Position numbers and translations under genes: made by a program
Part shown: positions 50,571-61,197 of the stretch, piece after piece
Numbering within the stretch: position 1 is the stretch's first letter
How the letters are laid out: each line of letters starts with the position of its first letter
The notes under the pieces: generated by a model
The model's database searches: none
Told to the model about the DNA's origin: nothing
Seen by the model: only the letters and a program-made list of their open reading frames with translations
NCBI GenBank assembly: GCA_963841435.1
Contig: CAWJCS010000005.1
Location: forward strand, 640,001 to 704,000
Direction: 5' to 3'
DNA from: an uncultured delta proteobacterium
GTDB taxonomy: Bacteria; Myxococcota_A; Polyangia; Polyangiales; Polyangiaceae
DNA: 64,000 nucleotides

Positions 50571-51147
50571 TCAGGGCCGCAGAACGCGTCTCCAGTCCTC
50601 TTCGACGCGCCGCAGCGCCAGCACGGCGCCGTAGGACCGTTGGCCGAGCCGCGCCGCGAACCGCACCTCGATCGGGGGCTCGGCGGCCCCCATCGACACC
50701 AGGCGGACGAGCACTCGGTAGTCCCCCGCGAGGAGCTCGCCGCGCTCGAGATACACGTTCTCGAGATTTCTCCCGCGACACTCGCCGTCGCGACCCGGGC
50801 AGTCGCGCTCCTTCACCAGGCCGCTGCTCGTCGGGCGCCCACTCTCGGCAAGCTCGCCGTTCGGGTCGATCACTCTTCAGATCGACGTCCGCGGTGGGCT
50901 CGTCCCAGGACACGAGAAAGTCGGCAAGCCCCGTCGGCAGCCCGCACCCTTCGTCGGCGAGCCCGTTGCCGTCGTCGTCGAGCGCGTTGCCGCAGAGCTC
51001 GGGCGCCGTGGTCACGGCCGGTCGCAAGGGCAGCTCCGTGGGCTCCACGGCGCTTTGGGGCGCCGGCGGGCGCGACGGCGCGCAACCGACGTGCGCGCCG
51101 AACAGCGCGAGCGCGAGCCAGGGCGCGCGCGCTCGCTCGCCGGTCAC
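50571..51147 (-). CDS. Lipoprotein with a MopE-like metal-binding motif and a YfaP-like domain; apparent frameshift at about 50875
   Basis: HVG|C lipobox, ELCGNALDDDGNGLADEGC, VSWDEPTADVDL(x)VIDPNGE, NLENVYL. Confidence 0.65.
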
Positions 51148-53855
51148 GGGGCGTCCGGCATCTTGATCCCGGTGACGACCTTCGGGTTCATGAGCTCGAA
51201 GTAGGCCTGCCGGGCGGCTTCGCCCACGGCGCCGGGCTCGTTGCGCAGCGCGAGCAAGACCCCCTGTTCCTTCATGAACTTCAGGGTGCGCAGGGCGCCC
51301 GCACGCTTGGTTTCGTCGCTGCCCTTCGCCATCTGCCAGAGCCGATAGCGCAAAACGACGCGCGTGAACGAGTGCGGGCCGTTGTCGTAAAGCAGGTTGT
51401 CGAACTGCTTCGTCAGCATCACGCGCGCCCACTCCTGCGGCGTCTGATTGATGCTCACGTGCGACATCGCCTCGGCATTGTCCACGTACTTGAACAAGAG
51501 GCCGGCCTCGAGGTCGTCGGTGGACCAGTAGCCGAAGGTCTTGTACCAGAGCTCGCCGAGCTCATCGAGCGCGGGCTTGGCGACGCTCAGCGGCTTGGTT
51601 CCATAGAAAGCAACGGCGCGAGCCGCCGTCTCGGGCGAGCCGCCGAGGATCAAGGCCAGCGCCGCATCGTTGATCAACACGTCGCTGTTCATCATTTCGA
51701 ACAGCTTCTGCTCGATGGTCGCGTCGAAGCCGCCCTTGGCGAGGGCGCGCGCCACCTGGTGCCGCGTTTCGATGGCGGCTTCTGGCGTGAACAGCGAGAG
51801 CAGCGCCGGCGCCGTGCCGGGCACGGGACGCTGGATCAGCGACTCGAGCAGACACTCGCGTCGGAACTCGTCGGGCTTCTCGTTGCCCTTGTACTCGTCG
51901 ATCTTCTTCGCAATCTCGAGAAAATCGTCCTTCTCGGCGACCCAGGCGAGCGCGGCACACGCGGCCTTCCGGCTCTGCTCGTTCTCCTTCGTGTCCTCGA
52001 TGTACTCGAGAAGCATTTTGAAGGCCTTGTTGTCGCGCCATTCGGAGAACCCGTCGGCGGCGCCGACGCCGATGGCGCGCAGCGACATGCCGAGGATTGC
52101 GAGGCCGCCCTGATAGAGGCCGTCCATCGTGACGTCGAGCTCGTCAGGCTTGGCGTGAATGGCCTTGTCGAGGCTCTTCCACGACTGCTTGTCCTTGAGC
52201 CACCCGACGTAACGCAGGGCGCTCTGCGCGATCACCCACTCCTCGGGCATCGGAGGCTGCTGACCTTCCTTGGGGAGCGGCTGGTCGGGATCCGCCCACT
52301 TGCGGAAGGCGTCGATGTCCTTGGTGGAGCCCATGGCGGCGAGCGCGCGCAGGCCGTTGGCGTGCGGCGACGGCAGCTCGTGGATCCAGAAAATGACCGC
52401 GTCCTCCGCCTGCTCCTGGATGAGCGGGAGCTTGTCGGGATGCAGGATCGCGAGGTCGGCGATCATGCGGGCCGCCATGACGCGCTCGTCGTCGGTGCGC
52501 TTGAGCCCCATCTCCCAGTCGTTCTGGTCGGAGTAGATCTTGAGCGGATCCATGCGCAGCCGCTTGGCGAGCGTCGGCACGGCGCGAATATCGCCGATGG
52601 CCGCCAGCGCGAGCGCTGCGTGCGTCTGCAGGTGAATGTGCGGGTTCGACTCGATGTACTTGTAGAGCGCGTCGGCGCCGCTCGGATCGTTCAGGCCCTG
52701 GCCCGGCTTGAAGGCGTCGGTCGCCTCGATCACGTGGATCATGTTGAGCAGCTGCTTCTTGAAGTACCAAGCAGCCTTGCCCGGCTGACGATTGTCGTCC
52801 GGCGGATCCTCGGTCGGCGCGGCCTGCAGCGCGACGACGAGACCCTGGGTCCCGATGCCGTCGCGGATGGCCTCGAAGTACTTGGTGCGGCTTTCCTTGT
52901 CGACGCCGCGCAGGGCCGACACGAGCGGCTCGGTGGCCCGCGCGTCGCCGATGCGGCCGAGGCCCGGCGCCGCCTGGCGCGCGACCTCGGCGTCCTTGTC
53001 CTGCACGAGCTTGATGAGCGTGTCCGTGTACTTGGGCTCGGCGTGATCGGAAAGCACGGTGGCCACGAGCTGGCGCACGGCCGCGCTCTCGTCGTTGGCC
53101 ATCGTCGCGAGCTTGTCGATACCGATGAGGTTCACGATCTTGTTGGGATCGAAGGCAATGCCGCCGCCGAGGCGCTGCACCTTCGCGAGGTGCCCGAGCC
53201 GATAGAGCTTCATGACCTCATCGAGCGCTCGCGTGTCACCCAAGACGACGAGCGCCCAGGCGATCTGAGGCCTGGCGCCTGGCCCCGCCTTGGCGAACGC
53301 CGCGAGCAAGCTGTCGCGCGCGCCGTCGGCCATGGGCCGCCCGTACTCGGCGAGCGCGACCGCGGCCATGCCCTGCACGGCCTCCGACGGATAAGCGAGC
53401 GCCGCCGCGGCGGCCGGGACCCCTTGGGGATCCCTTTCCCACGCGAGCTGTTTGAGCGCCTCGCAGCGCAGCTCGTCGCTCGACTCCTTCGTCGCCCACT
53501 CTCGCCACGCTGCAAGCTGCTCGGCCTTCGGCTTGACGAAGATGTCCTTCTTGATCGCCTCGCCTTGCTCGATGGTCAGCCGCTCGGCGTCTTTCTTCAT
53601 GCCGAAGAACAAGAAGCCGGCGAGGCCGAGCACCGCGAGCACGCCCACGGCGATCACAGCGGGATTGAAACGGCCCTTCTTGAAATCGCCGTCTCCGCCG
53701 CCGTAGCCGCCGAAACCGCCTCCGGCGGGAATGCCGGGACTCGGAGCGCCCGGGATGTCGTCGTCGGGCGGCCATTTCGACAGGTCAACCTTGGGCACGA
53801 GCGCGACAATCGGCGGCTTCGGGGGAGCAGCGTGAGGGATGTTGGGTTCGAGCAT
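51144..53855 (-). CDS. Membrane-anchored HEAT-repeat protein (about 900 aa)
   Basis: Low-complexity N-terminus, TM VIAVGVLAVLGLAGFLFFG, HEAT repeats (DESAAVRQLVA, DAEVARQAAPGLGRIGD). Confidence 0.82.
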   Translation of the reverse strand: MLEPNIPHAAPPKPPIVALVPKVDLSKWPPDDDIPGAPSPGIPAGGGFGGYGGGDGDFKKGRFNPAVIAVGVLAVLGLAGFLFFGMKKDAERLTIEQGEAIKKDIFVKPKAEQLAAWREWATKESSDELRCEALKQLAWERDPQGVPAAAAALAYPSEAVQGMAAVALAEYGRPMADGARDSLLAAFAKAGPGARPQIAWALVVLGDTRALDEVMKLYRLGHLAKVQRLGGGIAFDPNKIVNLIGIDKLATMANDESAAVRQLVATVLSDHAEPKYTDTLIKLVQDKDAEVARQAAPGLGRIGDARATEPLVSALRGVDKESRTKYFEAIRDGIGTQGLVVALQAAPTEDPPDDNRQPGKAAWYFKKQLLNMIHVIEATDAFKPGQGLNDPSGADALYKYIESNPHIHLQTHAALALAAIGDIRAVPTLAKRLRMDPLKIYSDQNDWEMGLKRTDDERVMAARMIADLAILHPDKLPLIQEQAEDAVIFWIHELPSPHANGLRALAAMGSTKDIDAFRKWADPDQPLPKEGQQPPMPEEWVIAQSALRYVGWLKDKQSWKSLDKAIHAKPDELDVTMDGLYQGGLAILGMSLRAIGVGAADGFSEWRDNKAFKMLLEYIEDTKENEQSRKAACAALAWVAEKDDFLEIAKKIDEYKGNEKPDEFRRECLLESLIQRPVPGTAPALLSLFTPEAAIETRHQVARALAKGGFDATIEQKLFEMMNSDVLINDAALALILGGSPETAARAVAFYGTKPLSVAKPALDELGELWYKTFGYWSTDDLEAGLLFKYVDNAEAMSHVSINQTPQEWARVMLTKQFDNLLYDNGPHSFTRVVLRYRLWQMAKGSDETKRAGALRTLKFMKEQGVLLALRNEPGAVGEAARQAYFELMNPKVVTGIKMPDAP

Positions 53856-54122
53856 GAGTCCTCGGGCGTGGCGGTCCGGTGGCGCCGCGTACGCTGGCAC
53901 ACACGCCCCGGACGGGCGCAGGGCCGGAACCTTAGCCCAGGCTGCTTTGCGTGTGGAGCCCAGGTTTCTCGCTCTCGTGAGCGCTTTTCGCGCGCGTTCT
54001 CGGCTCCGTTCGCGATGGAAGTTTCTTCCAACCTCCACGCGGTCGCTCGGCGCGGTCGTGGCGCGGTCGGCCCCACAGCCGGCGTCGCTCGGCGTATTAG
54101 GCTCGGCGGGGCTCCCGACGGC

Positions 54123-54824
54123 ATGATGGTCTCCTCGAAGGCACTCGCGCCAATCGGCGTTGCGCTGCTCACGACCGTGGTCGTGACGGTCCTTTCCTAT
54201 GCGCTGCCCCCGGCTCATCAGGCGACGGGCGTCGGCCTCGCCTTCCTCGTCGTCACCTACGTCATGGTGCTGCGCCATGACGGCGATGCCGTGGCGCGCC
54301 ACGGGCTCGCGCTCGGCGGGCTCCTCGAGCCAGACCCAATCTCGCTGAAGCGGCTCTTGCGGGATGCCGTGCGCGCCGTGCTTTGGGCGCTCGCGCTCGC
54401 GCTGCTGATTTTCCCGCCTTTCTGGCTCGGGTGGCTTTGCTTCTGGCACCCGGAAGGCGGCTTCGCTCGCGCTTCGTTCCGCACGCTCGCCGCCGACGTG
54501 CCGGGTCAGCTGCTCGTCATCGCGCTGCCGGAAGAGGCGTTTTATCGAGGTTACCTGCAGAGCGCCCTCGACGAGGCGTTTCCCGCCCGGCTTCGCGTGC
54601 TCGGGGCGCCGCTCGGCGCCTCGCTGCTCGTCACGAGCGCCCTCTTCGCGCTCGGCCACCTGGCGACCGAGGTGGATCCGAATCGGCTCGCGGTATTCTT
54701 CCCCTCCCTGGCGTTCGGTTGGCTGCGCGCCCGCACGCGCGGCGTCGGGGCGTCAATCGTCTTTCACATGGCCTGCAACCTCTTCACGGCGTTTCTCGCC
54801 GCAAGCTACGGGTTCTCTTCATGA
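54123..54824 (+). CDS. CPBP/Abi glutamic intramembrane protease, myxosortase (MrtC)-like
   Basis: LPEEAFYRGYLQ, LFALGH, RLAVFFPSLAFGWLRART, FHMACN. Confidence 0.85.
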   Translation: MMVSSKALAPIGVALLTTVVVTVLSYALPPAHQATGVGLAFLVVTYVMVLRHDGDAVARHGLALGGLLEPDPISLKRLLRDAVRAVLWALALALLIFPPFWLGWLCFWHPEGGFARASFRTLAADVPGQLLVIALPEEAFYRGYLQSALDEAFPARLRVLGAPLGASLLVTSALFALGHLATEVDPNRLAVFFPSLAFGWLRARTRGVGASIVFHMACNLFTAFLAASYGFSS

Positions 54825-55666
54825 CGTACGGAGCGCTGCTCGATGATGTCGTCAACCGCGCCCTCGCCGAGGATCTCGCGGCGGGCGACCCGACCACCGA
54901 GGCGGTCGTCGCCGACACCGCGCGCGCCGTCGGTCGCGCCGTCGCCAAGTCGTCGCTCGTGGTCGCGGGTGGCGACGTGTTCGCGCGCGTCTTCTACCGC
55001 GTGGACCCGGGGGTTCGCGTGGAGCGCTGCCTGCCCGACGGCGCTCGCGCCGCGCCGGGGGACGTGCTCTGGCTCGTGGAAGGGGCAACGCGCTCGCTGC
55101 TGTCCGCCGAACGCACGGCGCTGAACTTCGCGCAGCGGCTCACCGGCGTCGCCACCCTCACGGCGGAGTACGTGAGCCGGATCCCGGAGGGCACCTCGCT
55201 CCGCATCGCGGACACCCGCAAGACGACGCCGGGCTTGCGCGGGCTCGAGCGCGAAGCGGTGCGCGCGGGCGGCGGCAAGAACCATCGCAACAATCTCGGC
55301 GCCGCCGTGCTCATCAAGGACAACCACGTCGCGGCGGCCGGCGGAGTGCGACGCGCCGTGGAGCTGGCGCGGTCGCGCGTCTCACATACGGCGAGGCTCG
55401 AGGTCGAGGTGGAAACGCTCGCCCAGCTCGACGAGGCGCTCGCCGCGGGAGCGGACTGCATCCTGCTCGACAATTTCGCAAAGGGAGACGTGGCGGCAGC
55501 GGTAACGCGCGTTGGCGGGCGCGCGCTCGTCGAAGTTTCCGGCGGCGTCACGCTCGACCGCATCGCCGACCTGGCGCGCGCGGGCGTCAACGTCGTGAGC
55601 GTCGGTGCGCTCACGCACTCCGCCCCGGCAGCCGACATCTCGCTCGAGATCGAGCCGCTCGGTTGA
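54821..55666 (+). CDS. nadC: Nicotinate-nucleotide pyrophosphorylase (carboxylating)
   Basis: ERTALNF, DTRKTTPGLR, LIKDNH, ILLDN, SVGALTHS. Confidence 0.96.
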   Translation: MTYGALLDDVVNRALAEDLAAGDPTTEAVVADTARAVGRAVAKSSLVVAGGDVFARVFYRVDPGVRVERCLPDGARAAPGDVLWLVEGATRSLLSAERTALNFAQRLTGVATLTAEYVSRIPEGTSLRIADTRKTTPGLRGLEREAVRAGGGKNHRNNLGAAVLIKDNHVAAAGGVRRAVELARSRVSHTARLEVEVETLAQLDEALAAGADCILLDNFAKGDVAAAVTRVGGRALVEVSGGVTLDRIADLARAGVNVVSVGALTHSAPAADISLEIEPLG

Positions 55667-56457
55667 CGGCGTTCGATGCTGCTCGCTTCCGCGCGCTGCT
55701 CGCCGCGCGTCACCCGGGTCTCGGCGAGCCGCTCGAGCACGTCACGCTCACCGACTCGACCAACGACGATGCCCTGCGCGCCGCCGCGAGCGGCGCCCCG
55801 GACGGGGCGCTGTTCGTCGCCGAGGCGCAGCGAGCAGGCCGCGGACGGCGTGGCAGCACCTGGCTCTCGGAACCCGGTGAGGGGTTGCTCGCCTCGCTGT
55901 TGCTGAGACGCACGCTCACCCCGGAGACGGCCGCGCTCTTGCCCCTCGCGGCCGGCGCGGCCGTGCGCGCCGCCGTCGCGCTCGCTCTCGCCCCGAGCGC
56001 GGCCGCGCGTTCGGTCGGGGTCAAGTGGCCGAACGACGTGCTCGTCGATGGTAGGAAACTCGCTGGAATTCTCGTCGAGAGTCGGCTGCGCGGCTCGGGC
56101 GAAGCCGCAGTCGTCGTCGGCCTGGGTCTCAACGTGGGACGGCTAAGCCTTCCGGACGAGGTCGCGGCTCGTTCAACGTCACTCGGGGCGCTCGGCGCGC
56201 TCGAAATCATGAAGGAAACGTTGTTGCATGCCATCCTGACCGAGATCGCGGCGCGCCTTTCGCTGCTCGCTCGGCCGACTGGCCCCGCTGCCCTGATTGA
56301 GGAAATCCGGCAGCACGACGCGCTCGAAGGAAAGCGCGTCCGGGTCGAAGGGCGCCAAGGGATCGCGTCGGGAATCGACATCGACGGGAGCCTGTTGATA
56401 AGAGACGAGCAGGGTGACCTCCACTCACTGCGTGCGGGCCACGTCGAGCTCGTGTGA
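55663..56457 (+). CDS. birA: Biotin-[acetyl-CoA carboxylase] ligase (no HTH domain)
   Basis: DSTN, AEAQRAGRGRRG..W, KWPNDV, KLAGILVE, GLGLNV. Confidence 0.95.
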   Translation: MTAFDAARFRALLAARHPGLGEPLEHVTLTDSTNDDALRAAASGAPDGALFVAEAQRAGRGRRGSTWLSEPGEGLLASLLLRRTLTPETAALLPLAAGAAVRAAVALALAPSAAARSVGVKWPNDVLVDGRKLAGILVESRLRGSGEAAVVVGLGLNVGRLSLPDEVAARSTSLGALGALEIMKETLLHAILTEIAARLSLLARPTGPAALIEEIRQHDALEGKRVRVEGRQGIASGIDIDGSLLIRDEQGDLHSLRAGHVELV

Positions 56458-56586
56458 AGGCGGAGTCGGCCGGAGGAGGCCGGCCCGAGCTGGGCCGGCG
56501 CGGGTGAGGTCCCGGCGCCCCACTTGACGAGAAGACCGAGCGGAGCAAGCAGGAGCGAACGAGAAGCGCGCGAAGCGTCATGACGG

Positions 56587-56705
56587 ACGCCCCCCGAAGG
56601 CGACGCCTACCGGCATCTTCGCGGTGCGGCTTGCAGTCGATACGAAGACGAGGCATAAAAAGGAAAGCTAAGACCCACGTCTCGGGGGCGTGGTTGGAGG
56701 CCAAC
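56587..56705 (+). promoter_or_regulatory. Structured leader or candidate ncRNA upstream of the PHAX-domain gene
   Basis: Nested pairings 56587-56602/56678-56691, GCCT/AGGC, TCTTCG/CGAAGA, CGGCT/AGTCG; the RBS lies in hairpin GTTGG-AGG-CCAAC. Confidence 0.45.
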
Positions 56706-56708
56706 AGT

Positions 56709-57435
56709 ATGGCAACCGAAGAAACGGTGAGTGCGATCGCTAAGGCCCTAGGCGAAGCGGACGAAATTCCGCTCGCTCAGATTGCTGGTGTGGTTCAGGC
56801 GCTCGGGGAAGAGCAAGCTCGTACGCTGCTCACGGAAACTCTGGAGATCGAAGGCAAGGGCGGGATGATGCTGCCCGACGGCAGCCGCAAGCGCTCGCCG
56901 GGCGGGGTGTTCTTCTTCCTCTCGCGGCAACGCTTGAGTGTGGATGACAAGCACCGCATCTTCCGGGCGCCGAAGCCGGCGAAGCCTCCGTCTTCGTCCG
57001 CCCCTGAGACGAGCCCGTTCCCGCGCCGCCGCGTGATCGAGGTCGCGCCAGCACGGCCTGCGCCCGCAAGCCGGCCGCCTCGTCCGGGCTTCTTGCCGCC
57101 CGAGCTGCCCGTGGCCGTGAAGCGCGTGAAGGTGCGGGAGGCCATCCAACAGGCGCTCACGGCTCTACCGGCGGAAGATCAATACGGTCTGTTGCTCGAT
57201 TTCCTCGCCGACCTCCACGAGCGTCTCGGCTACCGCGTGCCGGAGTCTCAGCGGACGCCGTCCGTCTTCGAATCCGCCGACGCGTCCCGGCGCCGCCATG
57301 GGCGAGCCGCCGTCGTCGCAGCGTCCGATCCCCGTACCGGAGTCGGCCCGCATCTCGACGAGCGAGCCTCCCGTGAGCCAGGCGGCGCCGAGCGAGCGCA
57401 AGCGAGCCGCGGCCAGCCGCTCGAAGCGCAGCTGA
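56709..57435 (+). CDS. PHAX RNA-binding-domain protein; probable frameshift at about 57271 (the uncorrected ORF ends at 57455)
   Basis: GGAGG RBS; IAKALGE...IAGVVQALGEEQARTLLTETLEIEGKGGMMLPDGSRKRSPGGVFFFL matches the PHAX-RBD pattern (T..IE..GG...DG.R.R[TS]PGGVF..L). Confidence 0.8.
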
Positions 57436-57451
57436 CGCCGCGCTTCGAGTG

Positions 57452-58135
57452 CTAGGCCGCCCGCCGGGCGGGCGTGACCTCGACGCGTTGCTCGGAGGTT
57501 GCGCGCCGTCGTGCGCGAACCTCGTCGTGCACCACGCGAGCCGCACGACGAGGCCGCGGAGCGGGCAAGCTCCCCGGCTCGTTCGGCGCGGCGTCTCCGG
57601 GCTCGCTGAGCCGGAGCGCGAGCTGTCGGCGCCCGCGGTGCAGCCGGCTCATGATCGTTCCCACGGGAACACCGAGCTCGCGAGCCGCATCGCGATACTC
57701 GAGCCCGCCGAGGTCGACGAGCTCCACCGCGCGCCGATAGCTCTCGGGCAAGTCACGGAGCGCACGGCGCACGGCGCGCCCCACGAGCGCGGCGGGCGGC
57801 GGCCCGTCGGCGTGAACCCAAGAACAGGGGTCGAAGGTGACGCGCTCGAGGGCACGATGCTCGCGCCGTAGCCGCCGGTAGCGGGAGACGAACAGGCTCG
57901 TCTGGATCTGCCGCAACCAGGCAAATAGGTTCGACCCCGGCTCGAAGCCGTGCGCGTAGACGAGCGCGCGCAAGACCGTATCCTGAACGAGATCGAGCGC
58001 ATCGCTCTCGCACGCGCAGAGACGACGCGCTCGCGCGCGGAGGCGCGGCAGCTCCGCTTCGATCGCGAGACGAGAGCTCGCGACGCTCGTCGGAACGGCA
58101 TCGGGAACCAGTACGGTGGTCGGCGTCGGGGTCAT
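57452..58135 (-). CDS. ECF sigma-70 factor (no adjacent anti-sigma)
   Basis: LPRLRARARRL, DALDLVQDTVLRA, NLFAWL, LPESYR, PVGTIMSRLHRGR. Confidence 0.9.
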   Translation of the reverse strand: MTPTPTTVLVPDAVPTSVASSRLAIEAELPRLRARARRLCACESDALDLVQDTVLRALVYAHGFEPGSNLFAWLRQIQTSLFVSRYRRLRREHRALERVTFDPCSWVHADGPPPAALVGRAVRRALRDLPESYRRAVELVDLGGLEYRDAARELGVPVGTIMSRLHRGRRQLALRLSEPGDAAPNEPGSLPAPRPRRAARVVHDEVRARRRATSEQRVEVTPARRAA

Positions 58136-58365
58136 GCCTCGGTGCTCTCGCAAACCGCGTGCCACGTCCGAAGCGCACGCTCCAGCGCGGATCCGGGCCG
58201 ATCTCTGCGGCTGGCGAGCCACCGTCGCGTGTCAAACTGGCAAGCGCGCGTTTCCCGCTGACAGCACGTCCAGCGCGCGAGGGCCCGCCGCCCTCGCGGG
58301 ACGATTCTCGAGCATCGTCGAGCACTCCGCTCGCGCCGCACGGCCGACCGCGCGGCAGCAACCGA

Positions 58366-59714: not shown

Positions 59715-60431
59715 CTACTCCGTCAAGTACGAGCGAACGCGCGACGCGAGGACGCTGTTCGGGTGGCGCTTCAGGAATGCGTCGGCGTGCTTCCCGGCCG
59801 CGGCCTTTTGCCCGCTCTTCGCGAGCGCATCGATGCGCAGTACCTCGGCCTCGAGGACGAGGCGCCCCCGCGGGTAGGTCCGCGCGTAGTCGTCGAGAAG
59901 CGATAGCGCATCGCTCGCGTCCCCCGAGCCGAGCCGTGCCCGCACCCGGTCGAGCGCTGCAAGCTCCTGAGCGAGCGAGCTTGCCGACGAGACACGCGGC
60001 TCGGCCACCTTGGACGGCGCGGCCGCCGGGGGTGCCGCCGCCTCGTCGCCGTTCGCGACCTCGGGCTCGGGGACGGCGGGCCGCGGTGTGGGCGCCGCGT
60101 GCGGTACCGGTTCCGTCGCCTGGGCAACGACGGGAGTCGCAGGTGCCGCAGCCGTCTCGCGGTGCTGCCAGACGTAGTAGCCCGCTGGCGCCGCCACCGC
60201 GGTACCGAGCCCCGACACCACGAGGAACTTCGCCCAACCCGCCTTGGCGAACAGCGCGGACGAGGCGCCGCCGGCCGTACCGGCCGTGAGCGCCGCCGAC
60301 CCCGCGACCCCGAGCGCCGCGAGCGTTCGAGCACGCACGGCGTCCGAGCTTCGATAAGAGGACCCCGCCTCGAGCAAGGCTTGCTCGAGCGCGCTGCCGC
60401 CCTCTTCGCGCAATCGACGCGGCCCGTTCAT
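59715..60431 (-). CDS. Putative anti-sigma factor with a C-terminal TPR-like domain
   Basis: Hydrophobic segment, Pro-rich linker, SLAQELAALDRVR, YARTYPRGRLVLEAEVLRIDAL, FLKRHPNS; ATGA overlap with the sigma gene. Confidence 0.72.
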   Translation of the reverse strand: MNGPRRLREEGGSALEQALLEAGSSYRSSDAVRARTLAALGVAGSAALTAGTAGGASSALFAKAGWAKFLVVSGLGTAVAAPAGYYVWQHRETAAAPATPVVAQATEPVPHAAPTPRPAVPEPEVANGDEAAAPPAAAPSKVAEPRVSSASSLAQELAALDRVRARLGSGDASDALSLLDDYARTYPRGRLVLEAEVLRIDALAKSGQKAAAGKHADAFLKRHPNSVLASRVRSYLTE

Positions 60432-61051
60432 GGGCCCACCTTCGTCAGGCCCGCTTCGAGCGCCTGCACGAGGTCGCGAAACTGGGCGCGCGCGCGGCGG
60501 AGCCGCGAGGCCACCGTCCCGGACGGGATCGACAGCACGACGGCAATCTCGGCCATGCTGAGCTCTTCGAACTCGTAAAGGACGAAGACGGTACGCAAGT
60601 CGAGCTCCATCCCATCCAGTACCCGGTCGAGCAATCTTCGGGCACGCTTTCTGTCGGCAAGCTGCTCGGGAGTGGACGGGTCGACGAGCTCGGGAGCCTC
60701 GTCCGCCGCGACCTCGCGACGGCGTGCGGCGGTACGCCGCGCATGGGCCGCAACGTTGAGGGCTGTCTGCAAGAGGAAGCTCTTTTCCGACCCGTGTCGC
60801 ACGTCATCGAGACGGCGCGCGACCGTGATGAAGGTACGCTGCACCTCGTCGTCAACCTCGGCGGGCGGCGTACCGGCGTTGCGCAGCACGCGGGCGACGA
60901 AATCGATGTGCTCGTCAACCATGCGCCTCAGGCGTGACTCTCGCTCGCTCGCCAAATCCTTCGCGCGCAGGCTCGACCCGACGACGAGCGGACGCACGCC
61001 CGACTTCAGATCGACAAGCCCCGTGGGGGCGTGCAAGGCGAGCTCGGTCAT
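60428..61051 (-). CDS. ECF sigma-70 factor
   Basis: HIDFVARVLR, DDEVQRTF, VFVLYEFEELSMAEIA, GTVASRLRRAR. Start uncertain (ORF open to 61132). Confidence 0.92.
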   Translation of the reverse strand: MTELALHAPTGLVDLKSGVRPLVVGSSLRAKDLASERESRLRRMVDEHIDFVARVLRNAGTPPAEVDDEVQRTFITVARRLDDVRHGSEKSFLLQTALNVAAHARRTAARRREVAADEAPELVDPSTPEQLADRKRARRLLDRVLDGMELDLRTVFVLYEFEELSMAEIAVVLSIPSGTVASRLRRARAQFRDLVQALEAGLTKVGP

Positions 61052-61197
61052 CGATGAGTCTTCGGGAGCGCGGGTGGGCGCCGGGGGGCCGCTGGAGGGT
61101 GCGCGTTTCATCAATTCCCGACCTAGTCCCAAATGATCACCTCAACTGCGGCGTCCGACAACCCGAGTCGCCAGAGAGCCTGGAAATTCCAGGGGAG

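Follow-up and report, generated by a model that had tools for sequence, protein, structure and literature searches.

Among the closest described systems for the gene analyzed here is human PHAX, an snRNA/snoRNA export adaptor of 394 amino acids whose RNA-binding domain occupies approximately residues 245 to 302. Sections of a published account of human PHAX (PMC12350170) present the protein as mostly disordered apart from its RNA-binding domain and place an ARS2-recognition motif, a phosphorylation cluster, a helix that binds the cap-binding complex (CBC), and a nuclear export signal upstream of that domain. The PDB title of the human structure, 2xc7, is “Solution Structure of PHAX-RBD in complex with ssRNA.” A domain from Cryptosporidium parvum (2w4s, “Novel RNA-binding domain”) sits in a eukaryotic protein that its depositors named as an ankyrin-repeat protein, which indicates that the PHAX-type domain is used outside PHAX proper. 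ProQ/FinO-type global RNA chaperones consist of a helical head with disordered extensions.

For bacteria, the domain assignment is already in public annotation, where it was made automatically. Such proteins from metagenome-assembled genomes (MAGs) carry the NCBI name [quoted passage not shown] and the JGI label “PHAX RNA-binding domain.” We found no paper on bacterial PHAX-domain members in the full-text literature, the coverage of which leaves out most subscription journals. Queries that combined PHAX with bacterial, myxobacterial, or Chloroflexi terms returned nothing relevant, and “PF10258” appeared in no paper. Our additions to the automatic assignment are the size of the bacterial family and its OB, RRM, cold-shock domain (CSD), and tandem architectures.

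The window, by which we mean the whole 64,000-nucleotide stretch of DNA that was analyzed, has a G+C content of 69.7% and contains a PHAX-domain gene that is real, chromosomal, and selected and that comes from an uncultured Polyangiaceae bacterium. The features of this gene and its flanks, with window coordinates and strand, are as follows.

55663 to 56457, plus strand: birA, biotin protein ligase, the 5' neighbor (Pfam BPL_LplA_LipB, E = 3.6e-20)
56631 to 56658, plus strand: promoter-like upstream motif, TTGCAG, 12 nt, and CGAGGCA running into CATAAA
56696 to 56700, plus strand: Shine-Dalgarno-like GGAGG, 8 nt 5' of the ATG, kept in closer relatives
56709 to 57455, plus strand: open frame as it stands, 248 amino acids, the last ~60 of them outside the conserved frame
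56709 to 57269, plus strand: coding sequence in the conserved frame, codons 1 to 187
56730 to 56969, plus strand: PHAX-type RNA-binding domain, residues 8 to 87, five helices (from Pfam, PDB sequences, and fold)
57018 to 57044, plus strand: F-P-R-R-R-V-I-E-V, residues 104 to 112, within the disordered Pro-rich linker
57090 to 57227, plus strand: F-L-P-P-E-L-P (residues 128 to 134) followed by a helical hairpin
57270 to 57272, plus strand: frameshift site, a GAA codon with one A extra relative to all homologues
57274 to 57435, plus strand: conserved disordered tail in the +1 frame with a basic end, stop codon TGA at 57433 to 57435
57452 to 58222, minus strand: ECF-type sigma gene, convergent with the PHAX-domain gene (Pfam Sigma70_r2 and Sigma70_r4_2)

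Profile, sequence, and fold comparisons identify the N-terminal 87 residues of the window protein as a genuine PHAX-type helical domain. Pfam family PF10258 (PHAX_RNA-bd) matched with 67.9 bits against a curated gathering cutoff of 25 (E = 7.9e-19), the alignment spanning residues 8 to 87 of the protein and positions 3 to 81 of the 84 in the profile, and bore out the assignment to PHAX-RBD made in the preliminary description of this DNA. A six-frame search of the window's genome with PF10258 gave 70.2 bits. At E values up to 1, Pfam returned only PF10258 and one chance-level phage family on the window protein, and no NCBIfam model matched it. In phmmer searches of PDB sequences, the protein matched human PHAX-RBD (2xc7_A; E = 3.7e-9), full-length human PHAX (8pnt_C; E = 4e-8), the latter at its own residues 245 to 302 only, and the Cryptosporidium domain (2w4s_A; E = 2.1e-5). 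By manual count from the phmmer alignment, the window domain and human PHAX are identical at 25 of 59 aligned positions.

From a 95-sequence alignment, AlphaFold2 predicted five helices in residues 1 to 90, with block-mean pLDDT values of 84 to 98. The predicted fold overlays the two solved PHAX-type domains, a check that the preliminary description had proposed for human PHAX-RBD: the best Foldseek match in the PDB was 2w4s_A (E = 3.6e-4, target TM 0.81, rmsd 2.0 over approximately 90 columns, 22% identity), and the second was 2xc7 (E = 1.1e-3, target TM 0.62). Beyond these two structures nothing in the PDB fell under an E value of 0.7, the next match having an E value of 0.75. We also considered membership in the Hfq, ProQ/FinO, CsrA, CspA, or SSB families and rejected it, as neither Pfam nor NCBIfam gave a profile match.

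The loop at residues 51 to 69, which in the window protein reads GG-MMLPDGSRKRSPGGVFFFL, follows the pattern GG...[DN]GSR-x-R-[ST]-PGGVF and aligns with the human PHAX motif, GSR-x-R-x-PGGVF occurring in both. Both peptide stretches quoted in the preliminary description are found letter for letter in the translation from the ATG at 56709. Among 149 family members (the window protein and the best 148 of 2,434 metagenome matches described below), the columns conserved in at least 90% were G51, G52, R60, R61, R62, G65, G66, V67, F69, and L71, and the best-conserved of the family are the loop's two glycines, three arginines, and GGVxF. Position 61 of the window protein is K where the family column is R.

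Although the window domain belongs by profile to the same family as human PHAX-RBD and has the same fold, the domain alone is common to the two proteins, and the window protein is for that reason not a PHAX orthologue. The cap-binding complex, CRM1, and Ran are eukaryotic. Whereas human PHAX has a long region ahead of its domain, the window protein starts directly with the domain at residue 8, leaving no upstream region for CBC, CRM1, ARS2, or phosphorylation features. With those upstream regions absent and 8pnt_C matching only at residues 245 to 302, we rejected the identification of the window protein as PHAX proper. In layout, the window protein may be likened to ProQ/FinO proteins, in that a small helical nucleic-acid-binding domain is joined by a flexible linker to a second small module; Pfam and Foldseek gave no sequence or fold relation between them.

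C-terminal to the domain, the window protein has a Pro-rich linker (residues 88 to 134) that is predicted to be disordered (pLDDT 50 to 59), a predicted hairpin of two helices (residues 135 to 150 and 155 to 173; block-mean pLDDT 94 to 95 over residues 141 to 170), and a predicted disordered tail with a basic end. Positions conserved in at least 90% of 95 homologues lie in the linker and hairpin region and comprise P105, R106, R107, R108, P114, P130, P134, L153, Q158, and L162. Similar RRR-V/I-V/I motifs, some of them repeated, occur in other Polyangiaceae genera. Searches of Pfam, NCBIfam, PHROGs, and PADLOC gave no match for the C-terminal part, and the ESM Atlas gave no usable match for residues 100 to 190. 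A prediction of two-copy self-association for residues 100 to 185 scored 0.30 against a mark of 0.42, which is evidence neither way.

The preliminary description had treated positions 56709 to 57435 as one gene with a disordered basic tail. The start at 56709 stands, since the homologues all begin with M-A/P/S-T/S-E/D as encoded there and not at a second, earlier in-frame ATG at 56580. The single open frame does not, as the interval is 727 nt long and not divisible by 3; the frame as it stands has its stop at 57453 to 57455, and 57435 is the end of the +1 frame stop. When 18 family members are aligned, the window protein departs from the consensus after residue ~187 to 188, where the window DNA reads GTC TTC GAA TCC GCC and relatives encode V-F-D-P-P. 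Read in the +1 frame, 57274 to 57435 gives the C-terminal 53 residues of the metagenome protein P0002 without a mismatch; P0002 is 98% identical to the window protein over the first 76% of the query. Consistent with a change of frame, the G+C-richest codon position is the third before the frameshift site and the first after it. Relative to three relatives, 30 to 33 of 50 to 52 tail residues are identical in the +1 frame (dN/dS of 0.24 to 0.39), compared with 11 to 12 of 49 in the frame as it stands (dN/dS of 0.64 to 0.79). The basic tail is therefore present but is reached only by dropping one A of the GAA at 57270 to 57272.

Because the DNA downstream of the extra A is without decay, this 1-nucleotide insertion, which alters the last ~55 residues in the window copy, either arose very recently by mutation or is an artifact of assembly. 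The conserved-frame product has ~241 amino acids. One public DNA run holds part of the stretch, with assembled coverage from 56770 to 57011, outside the frameshift site; no RNA sequencing runs are listed for the stretch.

The domain, motifs, hairpin, and tail are all under purifying selection. Between the window gene and three relatives, dN/dS was 0.10 to 0.29 in each segment of codons 1 to 187. Across all pairs computed, values were 0.03 to 0.29 for the domain, linker, and hairpin and 0.03 to 0.39 over all four segments with the tail included; among the relatives, the tail had values of 0.03 to 0.26. The insertion at 57270 to 57272, by shifting the final ~60 residues away from the conserved frame, could suggest that the window gene is a pseudogene decaying through a frameshift or a functionless fragment derived from a eukaryote. 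We consider this very improbable, since the tail DNA still encodes the conserved +1 sequence with its 53 residues identical to P0002, since the folded domain, motifs, and hairpin all lie intact 5' of the frameshift, and since the family, with its low dN/dS, is present in 22 of the 24 other genomes of the genus.

Two observations concern base composition. The first ~30 codons of the gene (56709 to 56800) have a third-position G+C of ~0.53 versus 0.8 to 0.9 further on, perhaps because selection keeps the start region free of structure. Upstream, a 1,394-amino-acid open reading frame at 50640 to 54824 on the plus strand is a read-through artifact of the high G+C content; the genes in that region encode a HEAT-repeat protein (51144 to 54659, minus strand) and an Rce1-like CPBP protease (~54156 to 54824, plus strand).

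To place the window protein in its family, we scored a profile of ten bacterial domains against 1.84 billion metagenome cluster representatives, which gave 2,434 matches at E values up to 1e-3, 1,180 at 1e-10, and 24 at 1e-30. Architectures were analyzed in a set of 149 proteins made up of the best 148 of the 2,434 representatives and the window protein (P0001), and PF10258 was found in 149 of 149. Within this set of the best 148 plus the window protein, 125 proteins had one PHAX domain, 21 had two, 2 had three, and 1 had four, so that 24 of 149 carried two to four domains in tandem; the first domain began within residues 1 to 60 in 131 of 149. The same best 148 and the window protein yielded as extra domains RRM_1 (four proteins), cold-shock (two), RRM_5 (one), and MurD-like_N (one). 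A C-terminal domain of ~110 amino acids was common to 50 of these 149, and the Polyangiaceae-type tail occurred in 23 of them, the window protein included. A quick tree of 161 bacterial-type domains was poorly resolved, with 91 of 158 inner branches open, and showed only that the domains with Polyangiaceae-type tails and those with OB-type tails each cluster, with 2 label changes each compared with ~20 in shuffles.

The ~110-amino-acid domain was examined in P0251, which was modeled with 38 sequences to a mean pLDDT of 93. In Foldseek, the N terminus of this model matches 2xc7 and 2w4s, and the C-terminal domain matches OB folds, among them PriB (target TM 0.55 to 0.61) and a small SSB from Mycoplasma pneumoniae, with a target TM of 0.59, as well as mitochondrial SSB, the N-terminal OB of lysyl-tRNA synthetases (of the anticodon-binding type), and editosome OB proteins; over SSB, mitochondrial SSB, and PriB, target TM values were 0.51 to 0.61. 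Chloroflexota PHAX-OB genes such as that of P0251 are bacterial and stand-alone like the window gene, and their N-terminal domains are 41 to 53% identical to that of the window protein by tblastn. Where P0251-type proteins end in an OB fold, however, the window protein has a disordered motif region and a helical hairpin.

Some further architectures were seen in passing. The Chloroflexota proteins at L047 to L051, L053, and L054 and among P0123 to P0268 end in a ~110-amino-acid unannotated domain, for example, L049:5989-6711 on the plus strand, and in some Chloroflexota PHAX proteins a helical segment bearing a conserved FGLEMT-x-KLL motif is added at the C terminus. P0160 (797 amino acids), P0199 (527 amino acids), and P0270 contain up to four weaker PHAX-type repeats in a Ser/Thr/Lys/Asn-rich, eukaryotic-looking composition; a search with P0199 found three proteins, and a longer search with residues 1 to 90 of the window protein found no eukaryotic PHAX.

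We infer, with a probability of roughly 60%, that the window gene encodes, under selection, an RNA-binding adaptor or chaperone rather than an enzyme, with the PHAX-type domain as its RNA-binding part. By analogy with human PHAX, the domain would bind single-stranded RNA with little sequence preference, making contact through the glycine/arginine-rich loop GG...DGSR-K/R-R-S/T-PGGVFF that the two proteins have in common. The conserved C-terminal motifs and the hairpin might then tether the RNA-binding head to itself or to a partner protein, although the roles that we assign to these parts are guesses, and the whole protein would act as an RNA adaptor or chaperone without enzymatic activity. The relatives with tandem domains make multivalency an attractive idea. 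Overall, the window protein is an ordinary-looking member of a known domain family for which an adaptor function is plausible.

The architectures of the relatives, in which the PHAX domain is repeated or fused to OB, RRM, or cold-shock modules, point to binding of single-stranded nucleic acid, and the RRM, cold-shock, and OB-fold fusions strengthen the proposal of the preliminary description that the protein may be a bacterial RNA chaperone or regulator. The window protein itself has none of these extra nucleic-acid-binding modules. SSB- and PriB-like OB partners fit single-stranded DNA (ssDNA) as well as RNA, which makes ssDNA binding the main rival: the domain could bind ssDNA in bacteria, and the protein could be an SSB-like accessory of replication, recombination, or repair. 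The commonest partner domain, found in 50 of the 149 proteins (the best 148 of 2,434 and the window protein), matches the OB folds of SSB, mitochondrial SSB, and PriB, and the layout of the window protein is itself SSB-like, in that a folded head is followed by a disordered linker rich in Pro and by conserved motifs toward the end. We nevertheless find an ssDNA role unlikely. RRM and cold-shock domains are the partners in other fusions, the OB search also returned the tRNA-binding OB of LysRS and editosome OB proteins, ssRNA is the ligand in the one solved complex of the domain according to the title of 2xc7, and replication or repair genes adjoin the PHAX gene in none of the loci examined. 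More tentatively, and with rather more doubt than hope, we raise a wider proposal that extends the RNA-binding reading, in which PHAX-type domains might be an old bacterial family of modular ssRNA binders deployed as PHAX plus OB, PHAX plus RRM, tandem repeats, or PHAX with a motif-bearing disordered tail.

The genomic context was analyzed in the window and in related loci. Upstream of the gene, the window order is a HEAT-repeat protein (minus strand), an Rce1-like CPBP protease (plus), nadC (plus), and birA (plus); downstream, it is the ECF sigma gene, a family-8 glycoside hydrolase, a gene without assignment, a second ECF sigma gene, another gene without assignment, and an NAD(P)HX repair fusion, all on the minus strand. 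The preliminary description had named birA (55663-56457, plus strand) and an ECF sigma gene (57452-58222, minus strand) as the neighbors, which is correct, and had called the PHAX-domain gene inserted between them. Insertion as a recent event finds no support in the related loci, since nadC-birA lies directly upstream in 13 of 32 Myxococcota-type loci, with 2 more ending at a contig edge, and the convergent sigma gene is kept in 12 of 32. The remaining pattern is varied: 17 of the 32 have neither nadC-birA nor the sigma neighbor, and this second subgroup has DUF481, DUF6438, and unassigned proteins as neighbors; the Chloroflexota loci have transporters or unassigned proteins. As the gene context is kept only among close kin, it says nothing firm on function and, for the window gene, points to no specific process.

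The recurrence of the convergent sigma gene in 12 of 32 Myxococcota-type loci, with no evident anti-sigma gene beside it, could mean that the PHAX-domain protein partners the neighboring ECF sigma factor as an unorthodox anti-sigma or RNA-polymerase-associated factor. Several results make such a partnership very hard to credit. The sigma neighbor is absent from 17 of 32 Myxococcota-type loci and from all Chloroflexota loci, the two genes are convergent and not cotranscribed, Pfam found no anti-sigma domain, a Foldseek match to a sigma-L complex (E = 0.75) is at chance level, and the synteny is explained by shared ancestry within one genus. At 59718 to 61132 on the minus strand of the window, the second ECF sigma gene (60431 to 61132) is overlapped at its end, by a few bases, by the following gene for a 238-amino-acid protein and could be half of a sigma/anti-sigma pair with it; the sigma gene adjoining the PHAX-domain gene is without such an overlapping partner.

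A gap of 251 nt separates birA from the PHAX-domain gene. TTGC and CGAGGCA occur unchanged, at a spacing of 14 nt, in all 13 of the upstream regions aligned and are followed by a G-run and GGAGG, and this conserved motif in the gap after birA suggests that the PHAX-domain gene has its own promoter. A consensus sigma-70 scan called no promoter upstream of the gene, and the same scan gave three terminator-like matches, all inside the coding region. Two other interpretations of the upstream region were tried and rejected. As a regulon signal, TTGC-N14-CGAGGCA had 6 genome matches compared with 9 for the reversed control. As a structured leader RNA, the 13 upstream regions gave 3 invariant pairs and no covariation in RNAalifold, and Rfam returned only a chance match on the leader (mir-207, E = 0.27).

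One locus from another Polyangiaceae genus (L046:4292-7648) differs in its neighbors. There, the PHAX gene lies between a fusion of an RluA-type pseudouridine synthase with a SAM methyltransferase and FtsJ/RlmE, and a gene for ribosomal protein L3 is nearby. No other context that we saw suggests a connection with rRNA, and this one was observed only once.

The gene is present in one copy in the window's genome (7.78 Mb in 6 contigs). Among the other 24 genomes of the genus, 22 carry it and two, which are 77% and 63% complete, do not. Outside the genus it is rare, as the preliminary description held in calling bacterial homologues sporadic. It was absent from all 16 genomes that represented 16 further families of the order and was found in 3 of 401 genomes of an even sample of the phylum with the window's own included, in 15 of 401 of a sample of the Chloroflexota-type phylum, and, by PF10258 search, in 0 of 14 control genomes. 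The other two matches in the window's phylum come from the same family but from different genera, in which 2 of 29 genomes matched, and their proteins are longer (368 and ~343 amino acids), with several RRR-I/V-V/I motifs and a different helical C terminus. We rejected a phage origin, as tblastn found no match in phage records and BFVD gave no fold match under an E value of 0.1, and a mobile or defense origin, as PADLOC found nothing and PHROGs gave one chance-level match, for P0121.

When one genome from each prokaryotic species was scanned with sequence patterns, 43 loci were identified, 32 of the Myxococcota type and 11 in Chloroflexota; the scan may miss other phyla because its patterns came from Polyangiaceae sequences. 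The record titles of the 32 Myxococcota-type MAGs name Polyangiaceae, Sorangium, Myxococcota, or Myxococcales and, in a few cases, Pseudomonadota or Proteobacteria, and the 11 Chloroflexota loci are from Herpetosiphonaceae, Chloroflexia, Anaerolineae, Ardenticatenia, Dictyobacter, and “Candidatus Fredericiella.” If the RNA-binding reading is correct, some soil bacteria would own an RNA-binding module so far studied only in eukaryotic nuclear export and would have joined it to OB, RRM, and cold-shock modules, and the few families of general RNA-binding proteins in bacteria would gain one more. The large and architecturally diverse bacterial family also raises the question of the direction in which the domain traveled between bacteria and eukaryotes, which can be tested with a proper phylogeny. 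The domain is present in a cultured carrier, Herpetosiphon aurantiacus DSM 785, in Haur_5073 on plasmid pHAU01, which is annotated “hypothetical protein,” and experiments are thus feasible.

Within Chloroflexota, one Herpetosiphonaceae MAG (G437, the genome of L047) has four PHAX-domain genes, at L060, L063, L065, and L066, and the family has therefore expanded there. In “Ca. Fredericiella danica,” a translated PHAX-like stretch (L057:5788-6257) has in-frame stops and may be a broken copy; the same genome contains a second, intact-looking PHAX match.
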